Positions 9,190-34,482 are shown, counted from the first letter of the stretch. The stretch is DNA of 64,000 bases from Terricaulis sp. (GCF_044224985.1 NZ_JBGAJJ010000006.1), one strand, 5' to 3'. The notes: generated from the letters alone by a model not told the origin. Numbers and translations: made by a program.

Positions 9190-10767
9190 GTGGCGAAGCC
9201 AACACTGTACCTCTTCCCGGACACCAACATCTTCATCCAGTGCAAGTCGCTGCACGAAGTGGATTGGAGATTGTTGGGCGATTTCGATGAGTTCGTGCTG
9301 CTGATCTGTCGGTCGGTCCAAGACGAGATCGATCAGCAAAAGGGCCGGGGCGCCGGCCGCGTCACCGACCGGGCACGCGCCACCTCGGGCGTGTTTCGCG
9401 GCATGCTGAAATCAGGCGCCGACAAGATCGAGCGCGATGCCGCGCCGCGGGTGCAATTGCGTATGGCGCTGAGGCTGAAGCCGACGCCTAATCTCGGCGA
9501 TCTCGACTACAGCGATGCCGATGACGCGTTGGTCGGCTGCGCCCATGCTTATGCGGCGCAGAACCCCAGCGCCGACGTGCGAGTGTTGACCGACGATGGC
9601 GGTCCGATGGGCTCGGCGGTCTCGATTGGCTTTCCGGTGATCGATGTGCCGGAGCAATGGCTGTTGCCGCCCGAGGCGAGCCCAACGGAGAAGAAACTGG
9701 CGCAGGCGCAGGCCGAGAACGCACGCCTGCGTCAGACCGAACCTGAGATCGCCATTGCCTGCTACGACGCCACGGGCGCCGCGATCACGGCGCTCGCGTT
9801 GAAGCATCAATTGTTTGCGCCGCTGACGGACGCACAGATCGCCGCCTTGATGCAGAAGCTCAAGGATATACACCCGCTTGAAACGGATTTCGGGCCGGAG
9901 GAGCCGCCCGCGCGGACCGCGCCGACGCCGACAGGTCCGCTGTTTACGGAGACGTGGCGTCCAGCAAAAACCGAGGAGGTCGAGGCCTATCGCAACAAGC
10001 GTTATCCGGAATGGCTGACCAAGTGCGAATACGAGCTACGCCATCTGCACTTCAAACTTGAAGCCCGCCAGACGCCGCCGCTGATCCTGTTCGAAGCGGT
10101 GAACACCGGCTCGCGTCCGGCAAGCCAAGTGCGCGTCGACGTCACCGCGCAAGGGGGTGTCGCGGTGCGGCCGCCAGCCTACAAAGATGACGAGGATGAT
10201 GCGGACGGCCAGGTCGCGACCGCCGCCGAGATGACGTTGCCACGTCCGCCGGCAGCGCCCTACGGGCGATGGGAGCGCACGCCGGTGCGTGTCAGTTCGG
10301 CCCTCAGCGCGCTCGATCTTGCCGACAGTTTACGCCGTCAGCTCGACCCGTTCGGCGCTCGCGGCTTCAATCCGGACGGCATGTTCGCCCGCGCGAGCGC
10401 GTTCGCGGAACCGATGATCCCGCCGATCCCGCACTTCGTCCCGCCCCGCCACGACCCCGAGGGGTTTTACTACAAGGGCGGGCGCCCATCAGAACCGAGC
10501 CAAGCATTCGCGCTCACCTGCGATCTCTGGCGTCACGCGCGCGAGCCGCGTGGCTTTGGCGTTGAGTTGTACGCACTCGGCGCCGCGCCCGGCGACGCGA
10601 ACGGCATCGTCACGCTGACGGTGCATGCCGATAATCTCGGCGCACCCGCGGACCTGCCGGTGCCGATGAAGATCAGCATCGCCAACGCCGATGTTTACGC
10701 GGAAGCGGACCAACTGGTTGAAGCGCTGCGCCCCAAATTCAATCTGAAGGCGCTGCGGGGCGGTTAG
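9190..10767 (+). CDS. PIN-like nuclease domain protein with ~370-aa uncharacterised C-terminal region
   Basis: GTG start, 525 aa. PIN-type acidic residues in the expected contexts: LYLFPDTNIFI (D11), VQDEIDQQ (D45/E46/D48), VRVLTDDGGP (D135/D136). The rest has a short coiled-coil-like stretch (EKKLAQAQAENARLRQ) and no motif I can name. Confidence 0.65.
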   Translation: MAKPTLYLFPDTNIFIQCKSLHEVDWRLLGDFDEFVLLICRSVQDEIDQQKGRGAGRVTDRARATSGVFRGMLKSGADKIERDAAPRVQLRMALRLKPTPNLGDLDYSDADDALVGCAHAYAAQNPSADVRVLTDDGGPMGSAVSIGFPVIDVPEQWLLPPEASPTEKKLAQAQAENARLRQTEPEIAIACYDATGAAITALALKHQLFAPLTDAQIAALMQKLKDIHPLETDFGPEEPPARTAPTPTGPLFTETWRPAKTEEVEAYRNKRYPEWLTKCEYELRHLHFKLEARQTPPLILFEAVNTGSRPASQVRVDVTAQGGVAVRPPAYKDDEDDADGQVATAAEMTLPRPPAAPYGRWERTPVRVSSALSALDLADSLRRQLDPFGARGFNPDGMFARASAFAEPMIPPIPHFVPPRHDPEGFYYKGGRPSEPSQAFALTCDLWRHAREPRGFGVELYALGAAPGDANGIVTLTVHADNLGAPADLPVPMKISIANADVYAEADQLVEALRPKFNLKALRGG

Positions 10768-10842
10768 CGCTGCGGCGTCGGCGCCTGCAAGACGCGCTCG
10801 GCCGTCGCCGCTTCGGACCGCGGCCGAGTGGACGACGAGCAG

Positions 10843-10871
10843 TTGTAAAAGTTCGTCATTTGTTCTATAAT
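10843..10871 (+). promoter_or_regulatory. sigma70-like promoter (TTGTAA-17 nt-TATAAT) for the giant NTPase gene
   Basis: -35 TTGTAA at 10843-10848, 17-nt spacer, perfect -10 TATAAT at 10866-10871, inside a local AT-rich patch in otherwise GC-rich DNA. Confidence 0.45.
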
Positions 10872-11000
10872 TGGATATACGAATCGGCGCAGTTTTGCAC
10901 CGGGCGCGAGTGCTACCGCACACGCAAAGAAGCGGGCAGGCGAGCCCCGTTATCGCGTTTGTTTTCCAACCTCGATTTGAACCGACGTCAGAGAGTACCC

Positions 11001-14000
11001 GTGACCAAGTCCGTCACCCCACCGTCCACCGCCGGCGCCGCCGGGCCTTTGTTCGAAGCCCAGGTCGGCGCGAATTATCTGCTTGCGATGTTGCGTGGCG
11101 CTGAGCCGCGCGGACTTCCCGGCTTTGTGTCCGATCGCATCAAACTGCAGCGCGCCGCAGAAGGCCATCCGCTGGATGACGTCATCATCGATGCGCATGA
11201 CGCATCTGGCCTCAAAGCCGTGCTTGAGGTGCAGGTCAAACGGTCGATGACGTTCGCGCCGTCGGATGTAGAATTCAAAGCCGTGGTCCGCCAGATCGCG
11301 GCAGTTCTGCAAAAGCCCGAATTCACCACGCTGCGCTACGAATTGGCGGTCGCCACCGAGCATACCAAGCGCGCCGTGACCGGCGCTTATCAGGAAGTGC
11401 TGAGCTGGGCGCGCAAAATGCAGTCGCCAGCGGAATTCTTCGACAGGATCAAGCGGCCTGGCTCCGGCAATAAGGAGATGCGCGATTTCGTCGAAACGCT
11501 TCGCGCCAATCTGGCCGAGGCGGGCGCCGCCAATGACGAGGCCACGACATGGACCGTTCTTCGTCGCCTGCAAATTCATGTCTACGACTTCAACGCACCA
11601 GGCTCAGCGTGCGAAACCTACGCGCGTGATCGCGCCGCCGACGTCCTGCATATCGAGGACAAGGCGAAGTCAGGATCGCTTTGGGACGTTCTGATAACGA
11701 AGGCCTCGACATTTGCGGCGGGGGGCGGTGATTTCACGCGCGAGAGCCTGCGCGGCGAACTCAGCGAATTCCGCTTTGATGGCGATCGCCGCTACACGCA
11801 CATCCGTAAAGCAATTGAAGAGGCAGCGCAATTCGCACTCGTGGCGATGGCGGACACGATCGACGACGTCGTGCTGGGCCGAACAAAGCGCGCGGCGATG
11901 ATCCGCGCCGCTGCCGATGTCGGCCGTTATGTCGAGGTGCGCGGCGAAGCGGGCGTCGGCAAATCGGGTTTGCTCCGTCATCTTGCCGAAGAAGTGGCGC
12001 GCGAGGGACGCATCCTCGTCGCCGCGCCGCTCCGCATCGCCAAGGGCGGCTGGTCCGCTCTGAAGGGCCAGCTCGGCTTTGAGGGCACGGCGCGGGAATT
12101 GATGAGCGATCTCGCCGCCGACGGCGGCGGCTGGCTGTTCATCGACAACGTCGACTTCTTCGCTGACGACGAGCGCGCAACCGTCGAAGATCTGATGCGC
12201 GCGGCCTCGCACGTGCCGGGAATCGTCGTAGTGGTGAGCGCCCGCCAAAGCTTCGGCGTCGAAGAGCCGAGTTGGCTACCCGCCGACGCCATCGCGCGGC
12301 TCCGGGCAAGTGAGCCCGTCGATATTGGCGAACTCGACGCTGACGAGATCAAGGAGTTGAGGGAGGGCGCCCCGCGCCTTGACGCCTTGCTTGCGCCCGA
12401 CCATCCAGCAAAAGCCGTCACGCGAAATCTTTTCCGCCTGTCGCGCTTGGCCCGCGCCCCGGCTGATGAGCCGCCGCCGCGAACGGAGATCGACCTCGCC
12501 GCGATGTGGTGGCGTACCGCCGACGGCGCTGATGACGCCACTAAACGCGAGCGAGCGCGTATTCTCCGAAAACTCGGCGCCTTGTCGCTTGCGGGCGATC
12601 AGGTGTTCGATGTCAGCGACCTCAACGACACCGCAGCCATTGATGCGCTCGTGCGCAGCGAGACACTCCGCGAGCTGCGCCCTGATCAGATGGTTTTTCG
12701 CCATGACGTGCTGCGTGAGTGGGCGATCGCAAACACTCTCGCCGACGACGTCGCCAATCTTGAGAACCTGCCCCTTGCCGGTGCGGGTTCGCCCGCACAG
12801 GTCCGCGGGCTGCAACTCGCGGCGCGCTTCCAACTCGACAAGGGCGGCGATCCTTCCGCCTGGCGCGCACTGCTCGACGCTGTCAGCGGAGCAGGGCGGC
12901 ACCCGTCGTGGCGACGCGCCGCGATCCTCGCGCCATCGCGGTCAGAGATCTTTGAGGACTTGATGCCGGTTATCGCTGAGCCGCTGCTCGCCAACGATGC
13001 GGCGCTGCTGCGTGAAACCATCCGGCTCGTGTTAGCGGTCGACGTGCAGCCGCTTCGATCGCTCTATGCGGTGGTCGGGCTCGACGCGTCAAAGATACCC
13101 GAAGAAATCACCGTGCCCACGGGCGGCGCGTGGTGGCGCCTAGTCGATTGGCTGATGCAATTGGACGAGGCCTTCCCGCTGAAGGCGTTGCCCGAAATCG
13201 TCGATCTGTTCGCAGGCTGGGCCAAGATCAACCTTGTCTATCCCGACCCCTACACGCCAACCATCATTCACAAATTCGTCGAATGGCTCATCGCGATCGA
13301 TCAGTCCCGCGAGATCAAAGGATGGCACGAACGGAAAGTCGCGTTCGGCGGGGTCGTCAAAGACAAGGAGCTGAACCGGCTCGAAGAGGAGATGCGTCTG
13401 ACGATGGCGCTTTTTGCGACGCGCGCGCCCGATGACGTCAAGGCGTATCTGAAGACGCTGCCGGCGCTCGAACGCAATGATGCGATCTACGAAAAGCTGT
13501 TCGCATTCGACGGCAAGTTCGCTGCTGCGGCGCCTGAGGAATTGGCGGCCATCACGCTCGACGCGCTCGTCAAACCACCCGAAGAGCGCAGGCCACAGCG
13601 TGAGCGGCCTCTCGATGGTGCGCTCAAATTCATCGATCACCGGTTCTTGCCGGAATCGCCCGCCCAGGGCCCGTTCTTCGACTTGCTCACCGAAGCGCCG
13701 GCCGTCGGTCTCAAGCTGATCCGTGATCTGATTGACGCGGCCGTGGCGTACCATGTCAAAGACACCAAGCCGGCGGGATACAACGTCTTCATCGTCGAAC
13801 TGCCCGGCGGCCCGCGGCGCTTCTTATGGCACTTCACCTACGGCTGGGCGCGATCCTCGCGCTATCACAGCATCACGTCCGCTTTGATGGCGCTTGAAGC
13901 GTGGGCGCATGCGCGGATTGAAGCGGGCGCGTCCATCGAGTCTATGATCAGCGAGATCATCGGTCCGCCGGAGACGCCGGCGGCATATCTGCTGATCGTC

Positions 14001-16121
14001 ATTGACCTTCTGCTGTCGCATTGGCCGGACTCGCATGCGGCCGCGGTGCCGTTTGTTGGATGCCCCGAACTTCTGGCGACCGATCTCGGGCGGCCAGTTC
14101 AAGAGAACTTTGAGTTTCCCGACTTCTTCGGGTTGAAGGCGCTGCAGAAAGAGCCGGTCGGACCGAAGCTCGACGAGCTTAAGAGTCGGCCGTCGCGCCG
14201 TTACAGCCTCGACGCGCTGCTCTTCTATTATGCGCGAAATGGCGAGTTTGCCGAAGACCGCGCGGCAATCGTGGCGCGGCTGACAAACGCGAGCGATCGC
14301 CTCGGACCTTACGACGCCGGCGATTCCCTCAGCCAGCCGCGCTTGATGGCGGTTCACGCGCTCAATCGTCTCGATCCCGCTAATTACAAGGCAGTCGACA
14401 TCGCGCGCCGGGACGGCACCACAGTTCCGGGTCTTAAGTATGCACCGCCGCAAGAGGAAGCGGACCACTTCGCGCCGCTGCAAAAGGGCGCAGCGCAGCG
14501 CTCGGATGACGCCGCCTTCGCCACGTTCATCAACAGTATTTTGGATCGTCCAGAGCGTTCGAGCGCAGAGATCGCGGAGCGGGTTTTAGCGTGGGTTAAG
14601 CAGGAGCGTGTCGCCGCCGAGGACGAAGACGCCGCGATGGTGGTCGGTCAGGCGCTGACGGGCGCGGCGCTGATCGCCATGCGCGACGCGACGCCGGCGG
14701 TTCGTGCCGCCAATGCCGCTTGGGCCGAGGAGCGTTTCGCGGCGGCGCTGAAAGAGGAGCCTGACGTCGCGCGCCAGATGCGCGAGGGTTTGCAGTACAA
14801 TCCTGTTGCGATGGCTTTCGCGGGACGCGTCTTCGCTCTGAAGGACGCCACGCCGACGCGAGAGGATTTCAAACGAATACTCGACATGGCCGCCGGCGAC
14901 GCTGCCGCCTCACGCGGCGCGGGTGCGGCGGCGGAGGCGCTTCGCGCGCTCAACCCGCTTTTGCCTCGCGCGGTGATGCGCATCGCTTTCGCGGCATGCG
15001 TCGGCGTGCGCCACGATTGGGACACGCCGCCGGAGGTCAAAGCAGCGAGCAAGGCCGACGCGCGAAAACAACTCGAGCAGCGCATCGAAGCGGAGCTGGG
15101 CTGGTTGTTCGACGGTGGAGCCGAGCCAGATTGGCCGAACTTTCCGTCCGAAAGCATAGGCCGGCGTCGGCGGCACTACATCCGACTTGGACCGGCGCGT
15201 GACGAGGATGAGGCGCCGATGCCCGAGCCCGCGCGAATCGACACATACGTCAATCACCAGAGTGCCGCCGTGTGGCTCCGTGCCTTGTGGCGGCCCGCGA
15301 ATGATCGCTTCTGGCTGCGCGACTTCGTTTCGGCCTACATGGGCTGGACACTCGCCGCGAACGGCGCGGGTCTGGAAGAACGGGAGGAGGTGACCGATCC
15401 ACCGCGCGAGTGGAATCGCATTTTCTTTGTCGTGATGGCCGAGAGCCTGAAGGGTGTCGACGGCGCAGCGATGGAAGCCGCACTGCGCCCCATCACCGAA
15501 TTGCCCGAACGGAATTTCTTCGACGTGATCGCGGAATTGGTCCGCGCGCTGGACGTGATGTTTTTCAACGACGCAGGTGTCGAACCAGATGTCGCCCTGG
15601 CGGGGCGTCGGATGCTCGCCGACCGTCTCGGACAATTGTACGCGTGGCGCGGTCTACGTGGCACGAAGTCCGACGGTGTCGAGATGCATCTCGGTCCCGC
15701 GGGCTCCGTGCTGTTCTTCAATGAGCACGAATTCGGCCAGACGCCGCGCTCGTATCTGCCAGCGGTCATGGTCGAACGGTCATTGGTGTTCTTGTCGGTG
15801 CTACACAAGTTGGCCGTTGCCGCCCCATCGCCTTTCGTCGCGATCATCACTCTGAACTATCTCGACGTAGCGCCGCGCGCTGAACAGCTGCCGCTGCTTC
15901 TGGCGTTCACCGATGCGGCGATCGAGGCGTATCCCGCCGACCGCTCATTCTGGATCGACCATGGCATCGGTCCCCGTGTCTGCCGCTGGCTAGAGACGCT
16001 TTTCGACGCGCGGCCCGCAGCGATCTCGGCCGAGCGAGCCACGATCGATCTCATACTGGCAAAACTGGTCGCGATCGGCGTGACCGAGGCCCATGCCTTG
16101 GAAAGGAAATTCGGCAGCTGA
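11001..16121 (+). CDS. giant (~1706 aa) nuclease-NTPase: Cap4/DUF4297-like PD-(D/E)xK N-domain + P-loop (STAND/AAA-like) NTPase + ~1300-aa helical C-terminal region
   Basis: GTG 11001 is chosen because the longest ORF start (TTG 10860) lies inside the predicted promoter. N-terminus: GPLFEAQVGANYLLAML ... HPLDDVIIDAHD ... LEVQVKRS (a D...QxK nuclease-like pattern). Walker A VRGEAGVGKSGLL at nt 11943-11966. Walker B GWLFIDNVDFF at nt 12132-12155. The long Leu/Ala/Arg-rich C-terminus has no recognisable catalytic motif. Confidence 0.7.
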   Translation: MTKSVTPPSTAGAAGPLFEAQVGANYLLAMLRGAEPRGLPGFVSDRIKLQRAAEGHPLDDVIIDAHDASGLKAVLEVQVKRSMTFAPSDVEFKAVVRQIAAVLQKPEFTTLRYELAVATEHTKRAVTGAYQEVLSWARKMQSPAEFFDRIKRPGSGNKEMRDFVETLRANLAEAGAANDEATTWTVLRRLQIHVYDFNAPGSACETYARDRAADVLHIEDKAKSGSLWDVLITKASTFAAGGGDFTRESLRGELSEFRFDGDRRYTHIRKAIEEAAQFALVAMADTIDDVVLGRTKRAAMIRAAADVGRYVEVRGEAGVGKSGLLRHLAEEVAREGRILVAAPLRIAKGGWSALKGQLGFEGTARELMSDLAADGGGWLFIDNVDFFADDERATVEDLMRAASHVPGIVVVVSARQSFGVEEPSWLPADAIARLRASEPVDIGELDADEIKELREGAPRLDALLAPDHPAKAVTRNLFRLSRLARAPADEPPPRTEIDLAAMWWRTADGADDATKRERARILRKLGALSLAGDQVFDVSDLNDTAAIDALVRSETLRELRPDQMVFRHDVLREWAIANTLADDVANLENLPLAGAGSPAQVRGLQLAARFQLDKGGDPSAWRALLDAVSGAGRHPSWRRAAILAPSRSEIFEDLMPVIAEPLLANDAALLRETIRLVLAVDVQPLRSLYAVVGLDASKIPEEITVPTGGAWWRLVDWLMQLDEAFPLKALPEIVDLFAGWAKINLVYPDPYTPTIIHKFVEWLIAIDQSREIKGWHERKVAFGGVVKDKELNRLEEEMRLTMALFATRAPDDVKAYLKTLPALERNDAIYEKLFAFDGKFAAAAPEELAAITLDALVKPPEERRPQRERPLDGALKFIDHRFLPESPAQGPFFDLLTEAPAVGLKLIRDLIDAAVAYHVKDTKPAGYNVFIVELPGGPRRFLWHFTYGWARSSRYHSITSALMALEAWAHARIEAGASIESMISEIIGPPETPAAYLLIVIDLLLSHWPDSHAAAVPFVGCPELLATDLGRPVQENFEFPDFFGLKALQKEPVGPKLDELKSRPSRRYSLDALLFYYARNGEFAEDRAAIVARLTNASDRLGPYDAGDSLSQPRLMAVHALNRLDPANYKAVDIARRDGTTVPGLKYAPPQEEADHFAPLQKGAAQRSDDAAFATFINSILDRPERSSAEIAERVLAWVKQERVAAEDEDAAMVVGQALTGAALIAMRDATPAVRAANAAWAEERFAAALKEEPDVARQMREGLQYNPVAMAFAGRVFALKDATPTREDFKRILDMAAGDAAASRGAGAAAEALRALNPLLPRAVMRIAFAACVGVRHDWDTPPEVKAASKADARKQLEQRIEAELGWLFDGGAEPDWPNFPSESIGRRRRHYIRLGPARDEDEAPMPEPARIDTYVNHQSAAVWLRALWRPANDRFWLRDFVSAYMGWTLAANGAGLEEREEVTDPPREWNRIFFVVMAESLKGVDGAAMEAALRPITELPERNFFDVIAELVRALDVMFFNDAGVEPDVALAGRRMLADRLGQLYAWRGLRGTKSDGVEMHLGPAGSVLFFNEHEFGQTPRSYLPAVMVERSLVFLSVLHKLAVAAPSPFVAIITLNYLDVAPRAEQLPLLLAFTDAAIEAYPADRSFWIDHGIGPRVCRWLETLFDARPAAISAERATIDLILAKLVAIGVTEAHALERKFGS

Positions 16122-16154
16122 CGTGCGCGCTGGCCTAGAGAGGCTGCTTTCGGC

Positions 16155-16181
16155 GAAGGCCCGACCTCGGGCTTCCGTTTT
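16155..16181 (+). terminator. rho-independent terminator after the giant gene
   Basis: Stem GAAGGCCCG / CGGGCTTC (8 bp, one bulged G), loop ACCT, followed by CGTTTTGTG. Lies 34 nt after the stop at 16121. Confidence 0.5.
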
Positions 16182-16363
16182 GTGCTGCGAGGCTGCTAGC
16201 TTCCGAAAATGGGATAAACCGTCGTCCAAGGTCGCACCGTTCGACTTGAGAGTGGACTCGATTCCTCCCGCCGATGGGTAGGCCCTCGAAATCGGATGCA
16301 GGCCGCAGTTCGCTCCTCTAAGCTCTGTCTTGTGGTCTGGCCGTTGGGGAGGGCGATCGGACG

Positions 16364-17323
16364 ATGTCATTATCCGGCCCTTTCGGTTGGTTGCTCGCCG
16401 CCTCTTGGGGCCTTGTCATCGTGGGGATACTGGCCGCCATTTGGGTCGGCTATGTTCTTCCGCGGATAAAACGCACGCTCAAACGAATTGGCAGAGCGCT
16501 TCGTAGGCGCAACGCGTTCAAAGCGCACGGGTTCGGCCAAGGCGCTGGAAGGCATCGCCCGCCTCCTACTCAAGAGAGCGTGGCGCTGCGCGAACAACGC
16601 CCGGCTGGATCGAACGTGTTTTCCAGCCGCTCCTATTTCGCCTTCATTAGTTACGCCCACGCCAACAAGCGCTACGCGCGTTCGCTGCAACGCCGACTCG
16701 AGGCGTTCAAGGTGCACAAGCCCGTCGAAGGCAACAGCGCTCTGATAGGCGAGGGCAGATTAGGGCTTATTTTTCAGGACGAAGCTGAGCTGGGCGCCGC
16801 TGCCGATCTGGGTGAGGTTCTGCGAAGCGCCCTGGAGGCTTCCCAGAACCTCATAGTGATCTGTTCGCCCGCTTCCGCGAAGTCGCACTGGGTGAACGAA
16901 GAAATCCTGCATTTCAGGCGTGCCTGGATCGAACGGCGCTACGCCGGCACGGCGGGGGGCGAGAACACTGCGGGCGGGCGCATTCTCGCTGTTGTTCTCA
17001 ACGGAGGCCCGGCTTCCTCCGAAAGCGAGGTGGCGGAGGCCGTGTTGCCCGCGGCCATGCGCGAAGGGAATTCGATGGAAGGACCCGAGACAATCGTGAT
17101 GGCCGGCAGCAAGCCCTCCGACACCGATTTCGTGACCCGTCTGGTCGCGCACATGTTGGATGTGCCGTTCGCCGCGCTCGCGAAGGATCGGACGAACCGG
17201 AGGACCGAGATCACAAAGATTTTGGCCGTTGGCGCTCTTTGTCTAGCGCTCTTCGTGGCGTTTTCCGAACCACTCGGCCGCTGGTATTTGGAGTTCGCCA
17301 TGAACCTTCCCTGGATGCGTTGA
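16364..17323 (+). CDS. membrane-anchored TIR-domain protein (TM-TIR-TM)
   Basis: 319 aa. RBS GGGGAGGG upstream. N-terminal TM (GWLLAASWGLVIVGILAAIWVGYVL) followed by a basic cluster. TIR motifs YFAFISYAHANKRYA, LIFQDEAEL and NLIVICSPASAKSHWVNEEILHF (an SxW..E motif with candidate catalytic Glu E180, nt 16901-16903). C-terminal TM (ILAVGALCLALFVAF). Confidence 0.75.
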   Translation: MSLSGPFGWLLAASWGLVIVGILAAIWVGYVLPRIKRTLKRIGRALRRRNAFKAHGFGQGAGRHRPPPTQESVALREQRPAGSNVFSSRSYFAFISYAHANKRYARSLQRRLEAFKVHKPVEGNSALIGEGRLGLIFQDEAELGAAADLGEVLRSALEASQNLIVICSPASAKSHWVNEEILHFRRAWIERRYAGTAGGENTAGGRILAVVLNGGPASSESEVAEAVLPAAMREGNSMEGPETIVMAGSKPSDTDFVTRLVAHMLDVPFAALAKDRTNRRTEITKILAVGALCLALFVAFSEPLGRWYLEFAMNLPWMR

Positions 17324-18405
17324 TGCCCGCCCTCGCCGAAGAATCCGTCGCTTCGCGCTTCTTCTTCAAGGCGTGCGTGCTTCATCTGGCTGCCGATCGA
17401 GCCGATGCCGGCTGGATATTCAAAGGCTTGGACAACTTCTTCGTGGACAAAGCGTCAATCGATTCAGGCTACCCGCAAGTGTACGCGGAGGCCGAGCCGC
17501 TGGGCTGGATCGCAAGCTTATGCCTGGTGCCCGGCGAGGCGCCGGACCTCAGCGTGGATGAGCAGCATATATTGGACAGTTCGGAAGTGTTGGTCGTCGT
17601 TTGCTCACACAAGACAATGGCGTCCGCGAAGGCCGACCGAGCGTTGAGGTATTTCAAGTCGAAAGGGCAGGCGCGCAAGGTTTTGGCCGCCATATCGGCA
17701 GAGGCGGCGGCGATGACCGGTGCGGCGCTGCCGCCGCTACCGCCTGCGCTGCGATACGAAGTTGACGACGACGGAGCTCTTTCGGAACGACCCCAAGAAG
17801 TGCTGGCTGTGCATCTGCGGGGCGAACCGCGCGCGCGTGCTTTGGCGAGGATCGCCTCCGGCGTGATGGACGTTCCTTTCGATGCAATTTGGGACCGCGG
17901 GGCGAAGACCGAAATCGGCCGTCTTTGGTGGGCGCTTCCGCTCGCATTGAGCGGCGTCCTCTTGGTGGGTGTGGCCGCTATGGTTATGGCGCGCCCTGTC
18001 GTTCGGGACTACGTCGCCGAGCTGACGCCCGCATTGTTGAATGCGTCGGCAGAGGCGCTCGCGGATGGCGACACGCAGAAGTCGGCTCGCCTTGCTTTGG
18101 TCTCGATCTATGCAGCGCGGTTTCCCTTCTATGAGCAGGATGCAGACGCATCGGAATCCCGGCTGCGCGCGGCGCTGGCTGCGGACCTGGAGAACCGCGC
18201 GCAGGCGGAGAGCGTGCGCCGCGCGCCGCCGATTGCGACGCTCGGCGGAAAAGAGCTTGTCAAGCGGGCTTGCGCAACGACCCTCGCCGATGGCCGCGGG
18301 CGGATGTCGGACGAAGAGGTCGAAATGCTCCGCTACGACCCTGCCGGACCTTATCGCGACCTCTGCCGCTATCCGCTCTGGCTCGTCTCGGACCGGGCGA
18401 GCTGA
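17323..18405 (+). CDS. degenerate TIR-like paralogue + TM + ~137-aa C-terminal (probably periplasmic) domain
   Basis: ATG 17323 overlaps the upstream TGA (TGATG). Collinear with the upstream protein: RFFFKACVLH vs YFAFISYAH; VLVVVCSHKTMASAKADRALRYF vs LIVICSPASAKSHWVNEEILHF (W and E replaced by K and A); GVMDVPFDAIWDRG vs HMLDVPFAALAKDR. TM is LWWALPLALSGVLLVGVAAMVMA. The C-terminal tail has 2 Cys. Confidence 0.65.
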   Translation: MPALAEESVASRFFFKACVLHLAADRADAGWIFKGLDNFFVDKASIDSGYPQVYAEAEPLGWIASLCLVPGEAPDLSVDEQHILDSSEVLVVVCSHKTMASAKADRALRYFKSKGQARKVLAAISAEAAAMTGAALPPLPPALRYEVDDDGALSERPQEVLAVHLRGEPRARALARIASGVMDVPFDAIWDRGAKTEIGRLWWALPLALSGVLLVGVAAMVMARPVVRDYVAELTPALLNASAEALADGDTQKSARLALVSIYAARFPFYEQDADASESRLRAALAADLENRAQAESVRRAPPIATLGGKELVKRACATTLADGRGRMSDEEVEMLRYDPAGPYRDLCRYPLWLVSDRAS

Positions 18406-18752
18406 TGTTCGTTCGACCCACTGGTCGCATCGAAGCTGTTCGTCTGCTTTGCGGTCGAGACGGCCCAATGTCTGCTTTTGGGATTTTTGCGACCTTACTG
18501 ATGACCGGAATGGCCCTCCATTCCTGTCGCTCGTAACTTTGTGTCGGCAGGGGAGGGATTGGCCCTTTCCGGTCGCTAGCTCTTGCTCGCGAAGTGTCCG
18601 ATTCGCACCCGAATCCGGACTTTGCCTATCGACCGTCGCGTTTCTGAGACGGGGCAAATTCGGAAGCGATGCGTCCTGCCCAAGAGGCGCGACAACGGAC
18701 GTTGGTAGAGCGCGCTTGCCAAGGCAGGATTGAGCGGTCGAGTAGTGGTTTC

Positions 18753-20144
18753 CTAGGCTGCGGACGGGTGGCGCGCGCCGCCTTGATACGCGTCGAAGGC
18801 CTGCGCGACGAGGGGGCAGAAGGGACGCATTGCCTCGGGTATAACGAGCTGATCATCGTTGATCACTACCAAGCCGTCCGCCGCGAGAGGCGAGAGGAGG
18901 TCCAGTTCGTGCATAAAGGCGCCCCGGCCGCCAAGTGGTTGCAGATTCACGGCGAAATCGCACATTAGACGTTCGATCAACCAGCGGCGCCGCTCGTCCT
19001 CGGCGGTCAGTGCGTGGCCACGCGCCGAGGCCAGGCGTTCTGCTCCAATCGCGCGCCGCCAAGCCCCGACGCCGCTCAGGTTCTGAACATAGCCTTGCGG
19101 CGTTGTCGAAATGGCGGACGGGCCAAAGCCGATGATCGCGCCTGGCGCTGAGGCAGCGTAGCCCTGAAGGCTCCGGTGGAGCGCGCCACCGGCGGTCGCC
19201 AAAGCCAACGGGTCGTCGGGCTTGGCGAAGTGATCCATGCCGATGGCGACGTAGCCGCGCTTGAGTAGGGCGCGGCGTGCGGCAAGCGCATGATCGTAAC
19301 GATCGCGCGCGTTGGGCAGCGTTGTCTCGTCAATGACCCGTTGGCGGCGCTTGAGCCACGGCACATGTGAGTATTCGAAGAGCGCAATGCGATCGGGTTT
19401 CAACCTCACCGCCAGTTCTATTGTTTCCAGTACATCGAGCAGTGATTGACCGGGCAATCCGTACATCAGGTCGAAGCTGATGTGGGAAACGCCGACGCTG
19501 CGAAGCAAGGAAACTGCGTGGGCGACTTGATCGAATGGCTGATCACGTCCGATGACATGCTGCACATGCGACGCGAACGTCTGCACGCCAAGGGATGCGC
19601 GATTGACTCCGCATGCCGCGTAAGTCGTGGCCAGATCCTCGCTCAGCGAGCGCGGGTCAATTTCCACGCTGTGCGCCAGCGGCTGCGCGAGGTCGAACCA
19701 GAAGTCGAGGTGATGGAGGATTTGCTTGAATTGCCGAGCACTGAGGATGTTCGGCGTGCCGCCGCCCCAGTGTATTTCGTCAACGCAGTGGCTGCCGGCG
19801 GCGGCGGCGACTAGATCAATCTCTTTCAGCACCGTTTCCGTGAAATCGGCGGTGTCGCCGGGATGGGCCGCGTTGGTGTTGCATCCGCAATACCAGCAGA
19901 TGCGCTTGCAGTAAGGAACGTAGATGTAAAGCGAGAGCGATGCATCAGCCGGGAGCGCTCGGAGCCACGTCCGATGAACAGCGGCATCTACCTCCGGCCC
20001 AAAGTAGGACGCGCTGGGGTAGCTCGTGTAACGCGGTGCTTGACGCTCCGCATAGGGCAGAAGGCGCGGCTCCATGCCTGCACCGTCTCGCTTGCGAGCT
20101 CCGAAGAGTTTGACATCCGTCAAGCGCCGGTGCGGCGCAAGCAC
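18753..20144 (-). CDS. hemN: oxygen-independent coproporphyrinogen III oxidase (radical SAM)
   Basis: PRYTSYPSA and YIYVPYCKRICWYCGCN (CxxxCxxC radical-SAM cluster) plus HWGGGTP. The start may be the internal MEPRLLPY (~20075). Confidence 0.85.
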   Translation of the reverse strand: MLAPHRRLTDVKLFGARKRDGAGMEPRLLPYAERQAPRYTSYPSASYFGPEVDAAVHRTWLRALPADASLSLYIYVPYCKRICWYCGCNTNAAHPGDTADFTETVLKEIDLVAAAAGSHCVDEIHWGGGTPNILSARQFKQILHHLDFWFDLAQPLAHSVEIDPRSLSEDLATTYAACGVNRASLGVQTFASHVQHVIGRDQPFDQVAHAVSLLRSVGVSHISFDLMYGLPGQSLLDVLETIELAVRLKPDRIALFEYSHVPWLKRRQRVIDETTLPNARDRYDHALAARRALLKRGYVAIGMDHFAKPDDPLALATAGGALHRSLQGYAASAPGAIIGFGPSAISTTPQGYVQNLSGVGAWRRAIGAERLASARGHALTAEDERRRWLIERLMCDFAVNLQPLGGRGAFMHELDLLSPLAADGLVVINDDQLVIPEAMRPFCPLVAQAFDAYQGGARHPSAA

Positions 20145-20147
20145 GCA

Positions 20148-21329
20148 CTAAAAGTCGAGTACCTTGACGATATCGCCGGCCCCTGCGGCCGGCGCGTTGG
20201 CCGCACGCATCATCAACGCGTTCGAGGCGGCGAACACAGAGAGCAGGGAGGAATCCTGATTGGCAGGGCAGGTCGCCCAGGTTTGCCCGAACTCATCGGA
20301 CTGAAGGCGGGCGCGAAGATAGGTCTCCCGTGGCCCGTTCGCAGGAAGCGCCGCGGCGGTCCGCGCGGCGCGCAGGCTGAGCTGTGTGTCGCGGCCCAGT
20401 ATCCGCTCGACGAGCGGTCGCAAGAAGAGCTGTGCACACACCAGCGCAGAGGCGGGATTTCCGGGCAGTCCCAGCACGAGCTTGCCCTCGCAGCGGGCGA
20501 ACCAGGTAGGTTTGCCGGGGCGCAGGGAGACTTTCTCGAACAAGAACTCGCCGCCAAGGCGTCGCACTGCAGCGCGGGCGTGATCGTGATCGCCTACGGA
20601 GGCGCCGCCGATGACGACGACAATGTCGGCGCCGACAAGCGCGTCGCTAACTCGCCTCGATATGACTTCTGAATTGTCCGCGAAGGGCGCGCCGCGCGCA
20701 GCCTCTGCGCCCCATTGATCGACAAGTGCGCAAACGCCGTAGTTCACCGAGTCGAAGATTTGGTGTGGCCCAGGCGTCGCGCCCGGCGGCACGATTTCGT
20801 CGCCGCCCGACAGCACAGTCACGCGCGGCGCGCGTGTGACGCGCAATGTGGCGCGGCCAGCTGCGGCCGCGAGTGCGACGTGTACTGGGCGCAGGACCGC
20901 TCCGGGCGTCAGCAATACCGTGCCGGCGGCGAAGTCGACGCCGGCAGCGCGAATGTGCCGGCGCGATTCAACGGGCGGTGCGGACACTTCGTCGCCATTT
21001 CGCTCGGCGTCTTCCTGGATGAGCACGGCATCCGCGCCCGCCGGCAACGGCGCGCCGGTGAAAATGCGCGCGCATTCGCCCGCGCCGAGGGCATGGTCAT
21101 ATCCGTGCCCAGCGCCGGCCTCGCCGACGACACGCAGGCGGCCGGGCGTGTCGGCGCTGCGCAAGGCGTAGCCGTCCATCGCCGACGCGGCGAACGGAGG
21201 ATGCGCGCGACCCGCGACCACGGGCTCGCGCAAAGTGCGCCCAAGCGCGGTCTCCAGCTCGACGACTTCGTCCGGGAGCGGGCAGGCTTGGGCGATGATG
21301 ATCGCGCGCGCCTCGGCGACCGAAATCAT
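20148..21329 (-). CDS. moeA: molybdopterin molybdotransferase
   Basis: 393 aa. MoeA pattern ([49 protein letters not shown]). Confidence 0.85.
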
Positions 21330-21811
21330 GGCTCGCCTCGCTTGTAGTCGCCGGATGCGCCGCCGCTTTTGGTCATTAGCGCGATGTTGTCGATCACCAT
21401 GTTGCGGTCGATCGCTTTCAGCATGTCGTAAATCGCGAGGCAGGCGACGCTGACCGCGGTGAGCGCTTCCATTTCGACGCCGGTTTGGCCGACCGTCTTG
21501 GCGCGCGCCGTCACGACAAACGCGTGCGATGCGGTGTCGGTTGCGACTTCCACCTTGAGACTTGAAAGCGGCAGCGGATGGCAGAGCGGGATGAGATCGG
21601 CCGTGCGCTTGCCGGCCATTACGCCCGCGATCTCGGCGACAGCACGCACGTCACCCTTCGGCGATCCCGCTTCAAGCACGCGCGCGAACGTTTCCGGCGC
21701 CATCCGGACGCGGCCGCTTGCCATTGCCTCGCGCGCGGTCACGGGCTTGTCGGCGACATCGACCATGCGCGCGCGCCCAGCGTCGTCGAGGTGGGTGAGA
21801 CGTTGGTTCAT
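21326..21811 (-). CDS. moaC: cyclic pyranopterin monophosphate synthase accessory protein
   Basis: 161 aa from [19 protein letters not shown]. Contains [29 protein letters not shown] and [13 protein letters not shown]. The longer ORF-track version (to 22150) is an N-terminal artefact. Confidence 0.85.
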
Positions 21812-21813
21812 CC

Positions 21814-22362
21814 CTAGCGCTCCGTGAGACGCGGCATGATCTCGACCAGATTGCAGGGCATGTGGCGGCTGTCCAACTGCCAGCGGATAATCTTTTCCCA
21901 ACCGTCTTTGCAGGCGCCGTTCGAGCCGGGCAGTGCAAAGATGAATTTGCCGCGCGTGACGCCGGCGCAGGCGCGCGACTGCAACGTGGAGAGACCGACG
22001 CTCTGATAACTCAGCATGTGCCAGACCACCGCAAACCCTTCGATCTCCTTCTCGAAGATGGGCTTCAGCGCTTCCGGCGTAACGTCGCGGCCCGTCAACC
22101 CCGTGCCGCCGGTGCTGATGATGACGTCGATCTGGGGATCGGCGATCCAATCGTTCACTTGTGCGCGAATGGCGCCGGCGTCGTCGCGCACGACCGCGCG
22201 GGCCGCCACGACGTGACCGTCGCGTTTGGCGCGATCGGCCAACAGCGCGCCGGATGTGTCGGTTTCCTCATCGCGCGTATCCGAGACTGTGAGCACGGCG
22301 ATGCGCACGGGCTTGAACGGCAGCGTCTCGTCGATGCGGCAGGTCTGAGAAAGCTCGGTCAT
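21814..22362 (-). CDS. moaB: molybdenum cofactor biosynthesis protein B (MoaB/Mog family)
   Basis: Start MTELSQ. Contains [10 protein letters not shown] and [24 protein letters not shown] overlap with the moaE stop. Confidence 0.8.
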
Positions 22363-22817
22363 TTCAGGTGCTCCGCGCGGCGCGCGTAGTCGGCCGCGTT
22401 GGGTTCGATCCATCGTGCGCCATGGGGTCCCGCTTCGCGCTTCCAAAACGGCGCGTCCGTCTTGAGATAGTCCATCATCTCAGCCACCGCCGCGAACGCG
22501 GCGGTGCGATGGCTGCTGAGCGTGGCGACGAGGACAATCGGATCGTGCGCAGGTATCGCGCCCACGCGGTGAATGACGAGGAGAGCAAGAAGGGCGTGGC
22601 GCGCCGCCACGCGTTCTGCGAGGCGTGTCACTTCAGCTTCGGTGAAGCCCGGATAGTGGTCGAGTTCGAGATGACTGACGGCGCCATCGGCGGACGCGTC
22701 GCGGCAATAGCCGACGAAGCTGGCCATGGCCCCCGCCTGGCCGCCGCGGGCGTGCGCGAACGCGCGCAACTCGTCGTCTGGCAAGAATGGCTCAGAGGTG
22801 ATGATTACGCGGATCAT
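22359..22817 (-). CDS. moaE: molybdopterin synthase catalytic subunit
   Basis: 152 aa. Contains GAMASFVGYCRD, HLELDHYPGFTE and HRTAAFAAVAEMMDYLKTDAPFWKRE. Confidence 0.8.
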   Translation of the reverse strand: MIRVIITSEPFLPDDELRAFAHARGGQAGAMASFVGYCRDASADGAVSHLELDHYPGFTEAEVTRLAERVAARHALLALLVIHRVGAIPAHDPIVLVATLSSHRTAAFAAVAEMMDYLKTDAPFWKREAGPHGARWIEPNAADYARRAEHLK

Positions 22818-23548
22818 GTTGCGATCGCCAGGGCGGCGAGCCCGAGTACAATGCCGAGCACGCGCAACACGCCGCGCTTATCCAGCCCCCTGAGACTCCA
22901 GGTCGTGCCGATCAGCGCGCCGGCGACGGCGGCGACAATGAGCCAGGGGAGGTAGGACGGCAGCAGCGCCAGCGATACCGTTCGTCCAGCGAGGCCGGCC
23001 ACAGAGTTTGCGACGATGAAGCACGCGGCGATGCCGATTGCGCGTTGCGGATCGCTCCATCCCGTGAAGACGAGCAATGGCGAGAGATAGACGCCGCCGC
23101 CAATGCCGGTCAGACCCGCTAGCGCGCCAAGTCCGAGACCGGCCGGGAGCGCCACCAGTTTCGACGGCCTGACGCTGGGTTTGATCGCGTCGATTTGCGG
23201 CCACACCAGATAGCGCACTGCGGCGGCCGCGAGCGCCAACGCCAGAAGCGGGCGGTAGACTTCCTCCGGCACATCGACCCGCCCCGCAATGTAGGCGGCG
23301 GGGATCGCCGTCACCGCAAACGGCCAAAAGACATGCCAGTCGAAGCGGCCTGCGCGCACCAGGCGCAGCGCGCCAAGCCCAGCGACGACGATATTGAGAA
23401 TGAGCGCTGCGGGCCGGATTTCCTCGGGCGCCAGGCCGGCGAGGGCCATGAGGGCGATGTATGCCGAGGCGCCGCCGTGCCCGACGGACGAATAGAGAGC
23501 GGCCGCCGCGGTTACCGTGAGGGCAAGGAGGATGATGGGTTCATTCAC
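22814..23548 (-). CDS. TauE/SafE-family (sulfite-exporter-like) integral membrane anion transporter
   Basis: GTG 23548 with RBS GGAGG 6 nt upstream. Polytopic hydrophobic protein with the family-typical duplicated G-rich helices (SSVGHGGASAYIALM, GLTGIGGGVYLSPLL). Embedded between moaD and moaE. Confidence 0.7.
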   Translation of the reverse strand: MNEPIILLALTVTAAAALYSSVGHGGASAYIALMALAGLAPEEIRPAALILNIVVAGLGALRLVRAGRFDWHVFWPFAVTAIPAAYIAGRVDVPEEVYRPLLALALAAAAVRYLVWPQIDAIKPSVRPSKLVALPAGLGLGALAGLTGIGGGVYLSPLLVFTGWSDPQRAIGIAACFIVANSVAGLAGRTVSLALLPSYLPWLIVAAVAGALIGTTWSLRGLDKRGVLRVLGIVLGLAALAIAT

Positions 23549-23550
23549 GA

Positions 23551-23805
23551 TCAGCCTCCGCTCAGGGGCGACATGAAGGCGATCTCGGCCGCGCCACCCG
23601 CGCACTGGTCATCGCGTGTGCAAAAGCTGCGGTCGACGGCAACACGAACGCCCGGCGCGTGCAGGGCTTTGCCCAAGACCGGATCGCGCGCCGCCAGCCA
23701 AGCGCGGACGTCGGCGACGCTCGACACCTGTTGCGGCAGGTCGCAGAGCATTTCGCTGCAGCCTGCGACATCCCGGAGTCGTCCGAAAAAGAGGATCGTG
23801 GTCAT
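23551..23805 (-). CDS. moaD: molybdopterin synthase sulfur-carrier subunit
   Basis: 84 aa, ubiquitin-like size, C-terminal ...MSPLSGG (Gly-Gly terminus). Overlaps the moaA stop. Confidence 0.8.
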
Positions 23806-24794
23806 CCGCCGGTCACCGACATGTGCCGCGTCGTGGCCGGTTGGGAGAGACGCTCGATGTGAAAGTCATGCCCCTTCGGGCGCAACGCGATCGCTGCCTC
23901 GATGGCGTCCTGCAGCAGGGCATCATCTTGGCTCGCACGCAGCGGTGCACGAAGGTCGACAGAGGTCTCGTGCCCGAGGCAGAGATAGAGTCTGCCGGTG
24001 CAGGTGAGGCGCACGCGCGAGCATCCCTCGCAAAAATTGTGCGTCAGCGGGGTGATGAAGCCCAGCCGGCCGCCGGTTTCCTCCACCCGGACGTAGCGGG
24101 CGGGTCCGCCGGTGCGGTCCGGCAGATCGTGGAGCGTCCAATAACTGCGCATGTCCTCGTGCACGCGCGCGAGCGAGAGAAACTGGTCGGTGCGGTCCTC
24201 ATCGATCTCACCCAGCGGCATCGTCTCGATCAGGGTGATGTCGTGGCCGCGCGCGTGCGCCCATTTCACCAGATCTGGTATTTCGTGCGCGTTGTCGTGC
24301 TTGAGCGCAACGGTGTTGATCTTGACCTTCAATCCGGCCGCGACCGCCGCATCGATACCCGCGAGCACTTGTGGCAGCCTGTCGCGCCTGGCGATGCGCG
24401 CGAACGTCTCGCGGTCGAGTGAATCGACAGAGACGTTGACGCGCCGGATGCCGGCTTCGAAGAGGTCTTGCGCGAAATCCGCGAGTTGCACGCCGTTGGT
24501 CGTAAGCGTGATTTCGTCCAGGCCGGCGCCGAGATGGCGACGCATGCTACGCACGAGTTCGAGGAAGCCTTTGCGGACCAGAGGTTCGCCGCCGGTGAAG
24601 CGGAGACGGCGCACCCCGCGCCCTACGAAGGCGGTGCAAAGACGCTCAAGCTCTTCCAACGTGAGCAATTCGTCCCGCGGCAGGAAGCGCATGCGCTCAC
24701 GCATGCAATAGATGCATCGCAGATCGCAGCGATCGGTCACGGAAACCCGCAGGTAAGTGACGGCGCGGCCGAATGGGTCGACGAGCGGCTTCAT
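23802..24794 (-). CDS. moaA: GTP 3',8-cyclase (radical SAM)
   Basis: [18 protein letters not shown] (CxxxCxxC), TGGEPL and a C-terminal [14 protein letters not shown] cluster. Confidence 0.9.
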
Positions 24795-26276: not shown

Positions 26277-26387
26277 GATCGGTGTGAGCTCGTTTGATGT
26301 TTGTCAGTTTCGTGGTCCCACAAAGGTCAATTGTGCGGCGCAAAACCTGAAGTTCGGCGCAAAAAGTCGTGCGTTGTCGCCACTAGC

Positions 26388-26401
26388 TTGATTTGCATCA
26401 A
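26388..26401. promoter_or_regulatory. perfect FNR/FixK-type box TTGAT-TTGC-ATCAA
   Basis: Perfect match to consensus TTGAT-N4-ATCAA in the narR-like/narK divergent intergenic region, ~81 nt upstream of the narK ATG. Confidence 0.65.
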
Positions 26402-29220: not shown

Positions 29221-29230
29221 AGGACGCAAG

Positions 29231-34479: not shown

Positions 34480-34482
34480 GCG

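Follow-up and report, generated by a model that had tools for sequence, protein, structure and literature searches.

Two adjacent genes on the plus strand of a 64,000-nucleotide stretch of DNA from Terricaulis sp. (GCF_044224985.1 NZ_JBGAJJ010000006.1; the whole stretch is called the window below) encode membrane-anchored TIR-domain proteins. Gene 1 (16364-17323) encodes 319 amino acids when it is read from the ATG at 16364 to the TGA stop codon at 17321-17323, and gene 2 (17323-18405) encodes 360 amino acids from the ATG at 17323-17325. The pair derives from a large, so far uncharacterised family of membrane TIR proteins, in a form that is split and in part pseudo-enzymatic. The locus may be described as a translationally coupled two-gene cassette of two truncated, independently diverged family members, of which the first appears to have kept the catalytic residues of its TIR domain and the second appears to have lost them.

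The stop codon of gene 1 and the start codon of gene 2 overlap in the sequence TGATG at 17321-17325 (plus strand), which is read directly from the sequence and indicates that the two genes are translationally coupled. Both open reading frames, the overlap, and the coupling had been named in a preliminary description of this locus, and all of them stand. A codon log-odds score trained on ten long genes of the window was applied to the pair, with 213 real-gene windows as the reference. Residues 85-319 of gene 1 scored +0.29 log2 odds per codon and gene 2 scored +0.27, inside the range of the reference distribution (5th percentile 0.19, median 0.39); therefore, both are real genes. The 360-amino acid product of gene 2 from the ATG at 17323 is entry P0026 of the protein collection, and its homologue P0027 is equally long. 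A consensus scan of 15900-18900 found no sigma-70-like promoter, and an Rfam scan of 16000-18800 found no RNA family in the long region 5' of gene 1. At the other end of the pair, a terminator-like hairpin with a 10-bp stem (18379-18404) spans the last codons and the stop codon of gene 2, and hemN lies on the opposite strand, convergent on gene 2 and 348 nt away.

The core of gene 1 (16616-17323, plus strand) corresponds to a 235-amino acid version of the protein that holds the TIR domain, a juxtamembrane motif, a C-terminal transmembrane (TM) helix, and about 15 residues beyond it. The TIR domain covers residues 91 to about 250 in the numbering of the 319-amino acid form, as placed by Pfam and by AlphaFold2 (AF2) with Foldseek. 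Pfam TIR_2 (PF13676) matches residues 94-186 with 36.5 bits against a cut-off of 28 (7.9e-9), and Pfam ThsB_TIR matches with 30.9 bits against a cut-off of 21.2 (3.8e-7). The ThsB models of PADLOC match weakly (E 0.01-0.06), and the PADLOC SAVED_TIR match (E 0.003) covers the TIR core only. The motifs FISYAH, IFQDEAEL, and CSPASAKSHWVNEEI, for which this domain was initially called a canonical-looking TIR, are all present. Sequence searches of the PDB were uninformative, in that the TIR region of the gene 1 family had a TIR-STING chain as its sole match (E 1.1) and TPR matches dominated the search with the whole family alignment; therefore, a fold search was used. The AF2 model of gene 1, built from an alignment of 20 sequences, has a mean predicted local distance difference test (pLDDT) score of 80.7, and its best Foldseek matches are the TIR domains of AbTir (7uxu), RPP1, RUN1, TRIF, L7, TLR1, and SARM1 (E 2e-4 to 4e-3, probability 1.00). 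At the level of this predicted model, the TIR fold of gene 1 is confirmed.

Across 173 relatives, the columns of F94, S96, Y97, F137, D139, C167, S168, P169, V177, and E180 are each conserved in 160-172 sequences. Within the motif CSPASAKSHWVNEE (residues 167-180, 16862-16903, plus strand), the counts per column are 163 for C, 172 for S, 160 for P, 158 for W or Y, 169 for V, and 171 for E180. The codon of W176 is at 16889-16891 and that of E180 at 16901-16903. Gene 1 fits the family consensus at E180, W176, F94, S96, Y97, F137, and D139, and none of the conserved TIR residues has been lost from it, the Glu of its WVNEE motif included. E180 had already been singled out as the conserved Glu of an SxW..E motif, and the near-invariance of its column agrees with this; the putative catalytic role comes from motif position. 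It lies four residues past W176, which we take to be the position of the catalytic Glu in the plant SxWCLxEL motif, a correspondence of motif position only. With these NADase-type residues in place, the gene 1 TIR domain looks catalytically intact.

The juxtamembrane motif HMLDVPFAAL of gene 1 lies between the TIR domain and the C-terminal TM helix, which is placed at about residues 280-305 (17201-17278, plus strand) by a hydrophobic peak at 280-305. The chain stops about 15 residues past this helix, so gene 1 is without an outside domain. Basic residues are found on the TIR side of the TM helix in both gene 1 and gene 2, which is consistent with the earlier prediction that the TIR domain is cytoplasmic and membrane-anchored.

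Gene 2 has no match in Pfam, PADLOC, NCBIfam, or PHROG, and its relation to gene 1 emerges from profile comparison. The profile of gene 2 and P0027 was aligned with the gene 1 family profile by hhalign at a probability of 99.4% (E 3e-21) over residues 11-203. This alignment recovers the motif pairs FFFKAC/FAFISY, VVVCS...RYF/IVICS...LHF, and VMDVPFDAI/MLDVPFAAL, on which the collinearity of the two proteins had first been proposed. All features of gene 2 are on the plus strand. A degenerate TIR domain is placed at about residues 14-165 by profile alignment and AF2, and it is followed by the juxtamembrane motif SGVMDVPFDAIW (profile alignment), the sole hydrophobic helix of the protein as the TM helix (residues 198-222, 17914-17988), a helical outside stalk (residues 223-307), and a Cys-pair tail (residues 308-360) with C317 at 18271-18273 and C348 at 18364-18366. 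One TM helix and a tail of about 137 amino acids with two Cys had been given before; the tail measures about 138 amino acids, and both C317 and C348 are conserved in P0027.

In gene 2, the residues C, L, H, A, L, H, K, and A replace F94, S96, Y97, F137, D139, P169, W176, and E180, respectively. The preliminary description had reported the replacement of the W and the Glu by K and A, and the remaining substitutions are added here. P0027 is degenerate at the near-invariant columns to the same degree as gene 2. The Glu is missing in 4 of 176 aligned sequences, two of which are gene 2 and P0027, and the core motif is kept in 85 of 87 further metagenome copies, so that degenerate TIR domains make up about 1-2% of family members. 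At the level of sequence, these replacements provide good support for a catalytically degenerate TIR domain in gene 2. In locus L039 (12809-13816), one of the few family copies whose core motif is changed (CSPQSAKSAWINERIE, where Arg takes the place of E180) has a canonical full-length copy 4.7 kb away; here, perhaps for a second time, a degenerate copy would neighbour an intact one.

A structure search of both products gave TIR folds, more weakly for gene 2. Its AF2 model has a mean pLDDT of 78.6, with high values over the TIR domain and TM helix and values below 50 for residues 324-360. The best Foldseek matches are the TIR domains of RRS1, BCAP (a 'cryptic TIR'), RUN1, B. cereus, and MyD88 (E about 0.05, probability 0.99), and the RRS1 TIR is the top fold match.

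P0027 is the single close homologue of gene 2, with 50% identity, the same length of 360 amino acids, and both Cys kept. Identity between the two is unevenly distributed. It is 63% in the remodelled first half of the TIR domain (residues 14-70), falls to its lowest value of 34.5% in the former active-site region (residues 71-125), and is 66% in the juxtamembrane helix, 56% in the TM helix, 51% in the stalk, and 51% in the tail. A near-invariant TTLxDGRGRM...DLCRYPxW motif is present in both tails. Because codon statistics are normal, a 50%-identical homologue has the same length, and conservation is patterned, gene 2 looks functional and not like a decaying relic; catalysis appears to have been lost while other constrained surfaces were gained or kept. 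The conserved Cys pair fits an oxidising, extracytoplasmic location.

The family to which both genes belong was delimited by an exhaustive HMMER search of 1.84 billion cluster representatives with the gene 2 profile, which gave 2,732 matches at E<=1e-3 and 619 at E<=1e-10. When ten top matches were scanned, all ten had an N-terminal TIR_2 domain and eight also had WD40 repeats. The family plan consists, in order, of an N-terminal TIR domain, a juxtamembrane helix, one TM helix, and a long region of TPR, Sel1, or WD40 repeats. The juxtamembrane helix has the pattern LKLIAGLLGVGFDxLxxR followed by an Arg run, and the TM helix occurs about 190-220 residues into the protein, where 124 of 149 top matches have one. 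Because the Arg run sits on the TIR side, the TIR domain of the family is predicted to be cytoplasmic and the repeats to be outside. Gene 1 and gene 2 both have the juxtamembrane motif and then one TM helix at the family-typical distance. No WD40, TPR, or Sel1 repeat domain is found in gene 1 or in gene 2, which has only its stalk and a 53-amino acid Cys tail. Since the outside repeat domain is missing, both proteins are best read as truncated derivatives and not as canonical members.

The nearest relatives of gene 1 are TIR-TM-TPR proteins with 31-40% identity, and those of gene 2, beyond P0027, are TIR-TM-WD40 proteins. Among the latter, P0028 is 34% identical over 237 amino acids, in an alignment that continues past the juxtamembrane motif and the TM helix for 85 residues into the outside stalk. 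Direct comparison of gene 1 with gene 2 by BLASTP is marginal (E 0.002 over 42 amino acids), and a phmmer search with gene 1 did not recover gene 2. By sequence comparison, the two are family-level paralogues from different branches. The earlier term 'paralogous proteins' thus holds at the level of the family, as the 99.4% hhalign result indicates, and does not hold for recent duplicates. A recent tandem duplication was considered and rejected because gene 1 ranks 169 of 170 on the gene 2 profile and the nearest relatives of the two lie in different branches.

The preliminary description had treated the locus as an orphan that could not be mapped to a described system. This was overstated, since both proteins are truncated members of a family with more than 2,700 cluster representatives. 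Family members are annotated merely as 'TIR domain-containing protein' (for example, P0004, P0014, and P0028), and nothing specific on a TIR-TM-WD40/TPR family was found in the literature searched, whose coverage leaves out most subscription-journal papers. In locus L008 (805-2876), a 199-amino acid TIR gene (P0010) stops just before the expected TM helix and overlaps a 494-amino acid TPR gene by 13 nt; a single family gene has probably been divided here by a frameshift or an assembly error. Caution is therefore needed with short family members that appear to be 'TIR-only'.

The family also bears on the start of gene 1, whose TIR domain had been described as clamped between two TM helices. The C-terminal helix at residues 280-305 is supported, and the N-terminal one is doubtful. 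It belongs to a possible extension of 84 codons (16364-16615, plus strand), which is obtained from the upstream ATG only and contains a hydrophobic helix at residues 7-31 (16382-16456) followed by a basic cluster. The extension is favoured by its ATG start with GGAGG 11 nt 5' of it, by a 19-residue Kyte-Doolittle mean of 2.37 in residues 7-31, which is matched in 10 of 1149 84-residue chunks of six-frame open stretches of the window, and by the coding-like score of codons 1-33 (+0.26). Against it, codons 34-84 score -0.26 and are non-coding-like, and the whole extension scores -0.05, which is under all 213 real-gene windows. GC content by codon position is flat in the extension (0.64/0.57/0.62) compared with 0.62/0.48/0.74 downstream. 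The protein collection contains two versions of gene 1, one of 235 amino acids (GTG 16616) and one of 247 amino acids (GTG 16580), and both omit the helix. A first-strand motif is recognisable in 165 relatives, and in 155 of them the TIR domain begins its first strand no more than 30 residues from the start. Gene 2 also begins its TIR domain within about 30 residues of the N-terminus, as gene 1 does from GTG 16616 or 16580 but not from ATG 16364. A TM helix ahead of the TIR domain occurs in 0 of 173 family proteins. In 86 metagenome copies followed from stop codon to motif, 17 have at least 70 open codons upstream, and none of these 17 has a TM-like segment. The double membrane clamp is doubtful because it needs this extension, which is left out of two annotations, is seen in no relative, and looks non-coding in its linker half. 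The extension itself stands at roughly even odds and should not count as established.

TIR NADases are active only once their TIR domains pack together, as is known from structures of SARM1, AbTir, and plant TIR proteins. Because of this requirement, a hetero-oligomer is the simplest model for the pair. At the inner membrane, the TIR, juxtamembrane, and TM segments of gene 1 and gene 2 would bind the two proteins to each other; gene 1 would be the executor that cleaves NAD+, and gene 2 would sense or regulate without being catalytic. The pseudo-TIR of gene 2 would either restrain the gene 1 TIR domains or nucleate their assembly. A cue outside or within the membrane, read by the stalk, the Cys tail, or the TM helix of gene 2, would permit TIR-TIR assembly of gene 1, and the outcome would be NAD+ cleavage, growth arrest, and an abortive-infection-type defence of the host of the island in which the pair lies. 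The losses of the two genes appear complementary, in that gene 1 is without an outside domain and gene 2 is without catalytic residues, which counts for the heteromer. The conflict-type context, with an att-bounded island, STAND and PIN_4 neighbours, and relatives in defence islands, counts for its reading as a defence system. An inner-membrane NADase that is a heteromer of both proteins, with the pseudo-TIR as its sensor or regulator, is only tentatively proposed, at somewhat less than an even chance, and its heteromeric state, NADase activity, trigger, and defence role are each conjectural. The module of an active TIR and a pseudo-TIR suggested earlier keeps its sequence basis, namely an intact-looking TIR coupled to a degenerate TIR with a predicted outside Cys tail, and the heteromer it implied is plausible. 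A bolder form of the proposal, in which this would be the first bacterial sensor/executor TIR pair and a pseudo-TIR membrane protein with a disulfide-bonded tail would sense a cue outside or in the membrane and gate a partner NADase TIR on the cytoplasmic side by the logic of TLR/IL-1R or RPS4/RRS1, is rather doubtful.

Several observations weigh against the heteromeric NADase. On the gene 2 profile, gene 1 is 169th of 170 with 23.8 bits, compared with 80-104 bits for typical members; by sequence, neither gene is the nearest relative of the other, and their co-evolution as a pair is not evident. The AF2 alignment of gene 2 consists mostly of canonical TIR sequences, so its fold is not fully independent evidence, and because the model leans on this TIR-rich alignment, the profile evidence is the stronger of the two. 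Canonical family members are single genes, and there is no sign that gene 1 needs a partner. Three full-length TPR-type relatives are located amid ordinary or unannotated genes with no obvious defence genes. Among about 15 billion proteins, two belong to the gene 2 clade, and co-occurrence of the pair elsewhere is unproven. No further copy emerged when genome, metagenome, and viral contigs were scanned with the alignment of gene 2. P0027 is encoded on a 1,768-bp contig of the Joint Genome Institute (JGI 3300056388), where it is preceded, at a distance of 10 nt, by the end of a same-strand gene of 140 amino acids (positions 5-427). When residues 181-319 of gene 1 served as the query of a search that needs shared 5-residue words, it returned gene 1 alone and not this 140-amino acid gene; because of that requirement, a partner with 30-40% identity would escape it. 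Two or three family genes occur in 6 of 80 metagenome family loci, and all of these are full-length, have strong profile scores, and are several hundred bases apart. The coupling of a short active copy to a degenerate copy is so far unique to the window.

The neighbourhoods of other relatives are of a different kind from those of the three TPR-type proteins. The short TIR-plus-TM relative P0016 belongs to a restriction-modification island, in which its neighbours are two methylases of the EcoRI type, a GmrSD/HNH protein, and a TIR protein of the CAP12-PCTIR kind. As many as six consecutive TIR_2 genes form the arrays in which more distant WD40/Sel1 relatives occur, and RyR-domain proteins and STAND NTPases of the DUF4062, NACHT, or NB-ARC type are encoded with them. 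The arrays (L090/L091 1-17635, L092, and L089) comprise TIR alone, TIR-NPHP3_N-TPR, TIR-TIR, TIR-WD40, and TIR-FGE-sulfatase genes. Behind the arrays come a small RyR-domain gene and the STAND genes, the latter encoding 1,200-1,560 amino acids, and in separate loci a small RyR gene is directly 3' of a TIR-WD40 gene. These TIR/STAND arrays are similar to conflict systems that Kaur et al. (PMC7159879) have described from multicellular bacteria. Taken together, the neighbourhoods are mixed, and they favour, short of proof, a conflict or immunity role for the family.

The same mixture bears on an explanation in which the two genes have no joint function. They would be unrelated family remnants side by side, with gene 1 working alone or both decaying, or the family might serve envelope or cell-cell signalling. 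The shortening of both genes relative to the family norm, their origin in different subfamilies, the several relatives amid ordinary metabolic genes, and the fact that no family function was found in the literature searched all agree with this view. It has more difficulty with two intact frames of gene-like codon usage and a 1-nt stop/start overlap typical of co-expressed partners. The full-length, 50%-identical homologue of gene 2 with its patterned conservation and the other relatives in defence or conflict islands also speak against it. On balance, it is unlikely.

A Thoeris-like pair is a further alternative. Here, gene 1 would make a cyclic ADP-ribose (cADPR)-type nucleotide, and gene 2 would be a dead TIR that receives it and then oligomerises through its TM helix and tail, damaging the membrane. 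We know of no TIR domain that acts as a signal receiver. Gene 1 does lie above the ThsB_TIR cut-off, and the TIR fold of gene 2 is kept with a surface that is remodelled but conserved. In Thoeris, two-gene operons of a TIR gene and an effector are the usual arrangement, and many of the newly predicted effectors are TM proteins (10.64898/2025.12.03.692087). Pfam and PADLOC detected no known receiver domain (SLOG, Macro, SAVED, or STING) in gene 2, and a single TM helix is a weak pore former. In addition, gene 1 has a membrane anchor of its own and the same juxtamembrane motif as gene 2, a combination that fits direct contact better than a diffusible signal. A division of labour of this kind is quite improbable.

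No better placed is a toxin-immunity pair, similar to a type II toxin-antitoxin system, that stabilises the island. Gene 1 would be a constitutive NADase toxin and gene 2 its pseudo-enzyme antidote, with no external sensing. The order of the genes is suitable, with a putative toxin first and an inactive paralogue tightly coupled behind it, and the pair is cargo of a mobile island. The low conservation of the former active site of gene 2 beside conserved interaction-type surfaces would also suit an antidote. However, a cytoplasmic antidote would have no need of the conserved outside stalk and Cys-pair tail. Canonical members carry an intact TIR domain without a partner gene, so the family TIR is presumably self-restrained. 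These points make an antidote role for gene 2 distinctly unlikely, and the heteromeric NADase is retained as the working proposal.

The genes 5' of the pair are on the same strand. A STAND-like NTPase gene (10860-16121, plus strand) encodes a P-loop protein of 1753 amino acids with weak matches to nSTAND_NTPase5, AAA_16, and NACHT in Pfam, and it also matches, again weakly, PDC-M54A of PADLOC (1.5e-6) and Avs2/Avs4. Before it, a gene of 525 codons (9190-10767, plus strand) encodes a protein with an N-terminal PIN_4 domain (E 4e-5), whose C-terminal region of about 370 amino acids has no match in Pfam, PADLOC, NCBIfam, or PHROGs. From the end of the PIN_4 gene to the first possible STAND start codon there are 93 nt. 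An 82%-identical homologue of the STAND protein is encoded in a Hyphomonadaceae metagenome-assembled genome (MAG; JAHBYF010000004.1, L005, 10001-15202) in an entirely different neighbourhood, and no PIN, integrase, gene 1, or gene 2 was found within 10 kb of it. The STAND gene is probably an independent single-gene module, and it looks like a mobile member of an undescribed NLR-like family. A terminator-like hairpin (16157-16174, plus strand, consensus scan) lies 36 nt past the STAND stop codon; terminator-like consensus matches are no commoner here than in shuffled sequence, and the position of the hairpin alone is suggestive. Because the STAND gene occurs alone in L005 and this hairpin follows its stop codon, the TIR pair is treated as a separate unit, and the layout suggests a separate transcription unit. 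A larger system, with the TIR pair as the effector arm of the STAND NTPase and the PIN_4 protein, is very unlikely and was rejected, for although the four genes are adjacent on one strand and distant relatives have loci in which TIR genes are grouped with STAND NTPase genes, the 82%-identical STAND copy does without the other three genes and a gap of 243-495 nt with the hairpin separates the STAND gene from gene 1.

The pair had been described as cargo of an integrase-bearing island, and this description is upheld. A tyrosine integrase gene (5370-6797, NCBIfam) adjoins an exact 45-bp copy of the tRNA-Asn 3' half (5226-5270), which forms an att-type direct repeat with a second copy at 47416-47460, inside the tRNA-Asn gene at 47416-47490 on the minus strand. 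The integrase is thus beside the partial tRNA-Asn copy and not beside the intact tRNA. The repeats bound a segment of about 42 kb that encloses the TIR pair, and a third, internal att copy that would divide this island was not found above the shuffled background. GC content at third codon positions (GC3) is 0.68-0.83 for genes between the repeats, compared with 0.83-0.88 for most genes outside. Beside the integrase, a gene at 7693-8427 resembles a replication initiator by its matches to HTH_36 and to PHROG replication-initiation families (2e-14), and within it a PSNY repeat is encoded by three tandem 12-nt units (8234-8281). Anaerobic-respiration genes occupy 18753-36368, where a fused MFS transporter (narK), narG, and narH are confirmed by Pfam, and a Pfam-confirmed ribonucleotide reductase gene (38813-41035) is in the same island. 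Presumably, judging from their translations, the island also has a hemN-like gene, candidate molybdenum-cofactor genes (moeA/moaC/moaB/moaE/moaD/moaA/mobA-like), and a Fnr/Crp-like regulator. The island is mainly one of anaerobic respiration, with a few conflict-type genes at the integrase end, and it is possible that nitrate respiration is mobile here.

TIR domains have a central part in the immunity of animals, plants, and bacteria, and to our knowledge the bacterial TIR systems studied so far are cytoplasmic. The family considered here places an NADase-type TIR domain behind a single membrane helix, with repeats predicted outside, which is the layout of a Toll-like receptor, and no paper describing it was found in the literature searched. 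The pair of the window would be a minimal split version of this layout in about 2 kb, with a catalytic chain that has no sensor and a sensor-side chain that has no catalysis. It may serve as a convenient construct for asking whether such proteins signal across the membrane, whether a dead TIR regulates a live TIR in bacteria, and what the trigger is. If the sensor/executor reading is true, the pair offers an experimental way into thousands of bacterial proteins with TLR-like topology. If the two proteins do not interact, gene 1 would be a plain tail-anchored TIR protein and gene 2 a neofunctionalised relic.

Among known proteins, the pair is closest to its own family, with which it shares the TIR domain (in degenerate form in gene 2), the juxtamembrane motif (LKLIAGLLGVGFDxL in the family, MLDVPFAAL in gene 1, and VMDVPFDAI in gene 2), and an equal spacing between the TIR domain and a TM helix; gene 2 also has the first 85 or so outside residues. 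It differs in that both proteins are without the outside repeats and gene 2 is without the invariant TIR residues. In addition, the two genes of the window are coupled, which is not so in relatives, whose genes occur singly or as full-length copies in loose clusters.

Thoeris, with its types I-XI and others that are predicted, is similar in being a two-gene operon with a ThsB-like TIR of intact Glu first and a TM protein of unknown function second (10.64898/2025.12.03.692087). In contrast to Thoeris, the TIR protein of gene 1 is itself membrane-anchored and its partner is a TIR paralogue. None of the known or predicted Thoeris receiver and effector domains (such as SIR2-SLOG, Macro-TM, caspase-like, DUF2270, and SLATT) was found in gene 2 or its neighbours with Pfam, PADLOC, and NCBIfam. 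In gene 2 and its three neighbours (PIN_4, STAND, and hemN), the same scans detected no domain of the SLOG, SAVED, STING, Macro, or SIR2 type, in keeping with the initial remark that no known receiver of a TIR signal lies nearby. Among the genes of 9190-20144, no CD-NTase or cyclase gene and no SAVED or STING fusion of the CBASS or Pycsar type was found. The judgement that the locus is neither Thoeris nor CBASS is therefore shared here: the Thoeris effector and the CBASS/Pycsar cyclase and sensor are missing, and a ThsB-type TIR gene is present. A 2025 preprint on Thoeris predicts 29 types and excludes standalone TIR proteins from its survey. It has operons of a TIR gene and an effector gene as the rule, gives various TM effectors, many of them newly predicted and of unknown fold, and does not mention a dead-TIR partner (10.64898/2025.12.03.692087). 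The E. coli systems TIR-I to TIR-IX are validated one- and two-gene defence systems, some with TM or TPR segments, that need their TIR catalytic residues; the 2024 survey of these systems in Nat Commun remarks that some bacterial TIR systems seem to be without TM domains, repeats, and similar TLR-like features (PMC11350192).

Outside bacteria, two comparisons are instructive as analogies. RPS4 and RRS1 are likewise encoded by adjacent genes, one TIR having the catalytic Glu and the other lacking it; the RRS1 TIR acts as the partner of RPS4, and it is the top fold match of gene 2. Unlike these plant proteins, the proteins of the window have no NB-ARC or LRR domains and are membrane-anchored, and their heterodimer is only proposed; the likeness would be convergent at most. 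Toll-like and IL-1 receptors resemble the family in combining outside repeats, one TM helix, and a TIR domain in the cytoplasm. They differ in order, since the TIR domain of the family is N-terminal, and in that the family keeps NADase-type residues; the pair of the window is also without a repeat ectodomain. Receptors of the IL-1R type work as heterodimers of two TIR chains (PMC7075850). By analogy, and not by membership, RPS4/RRS1 and the heterodimeric IL-1R/TLR receptors would be the closest functional counterparts of a pair in which one TIR chain appears equipped for catalysis and the other for sensing.

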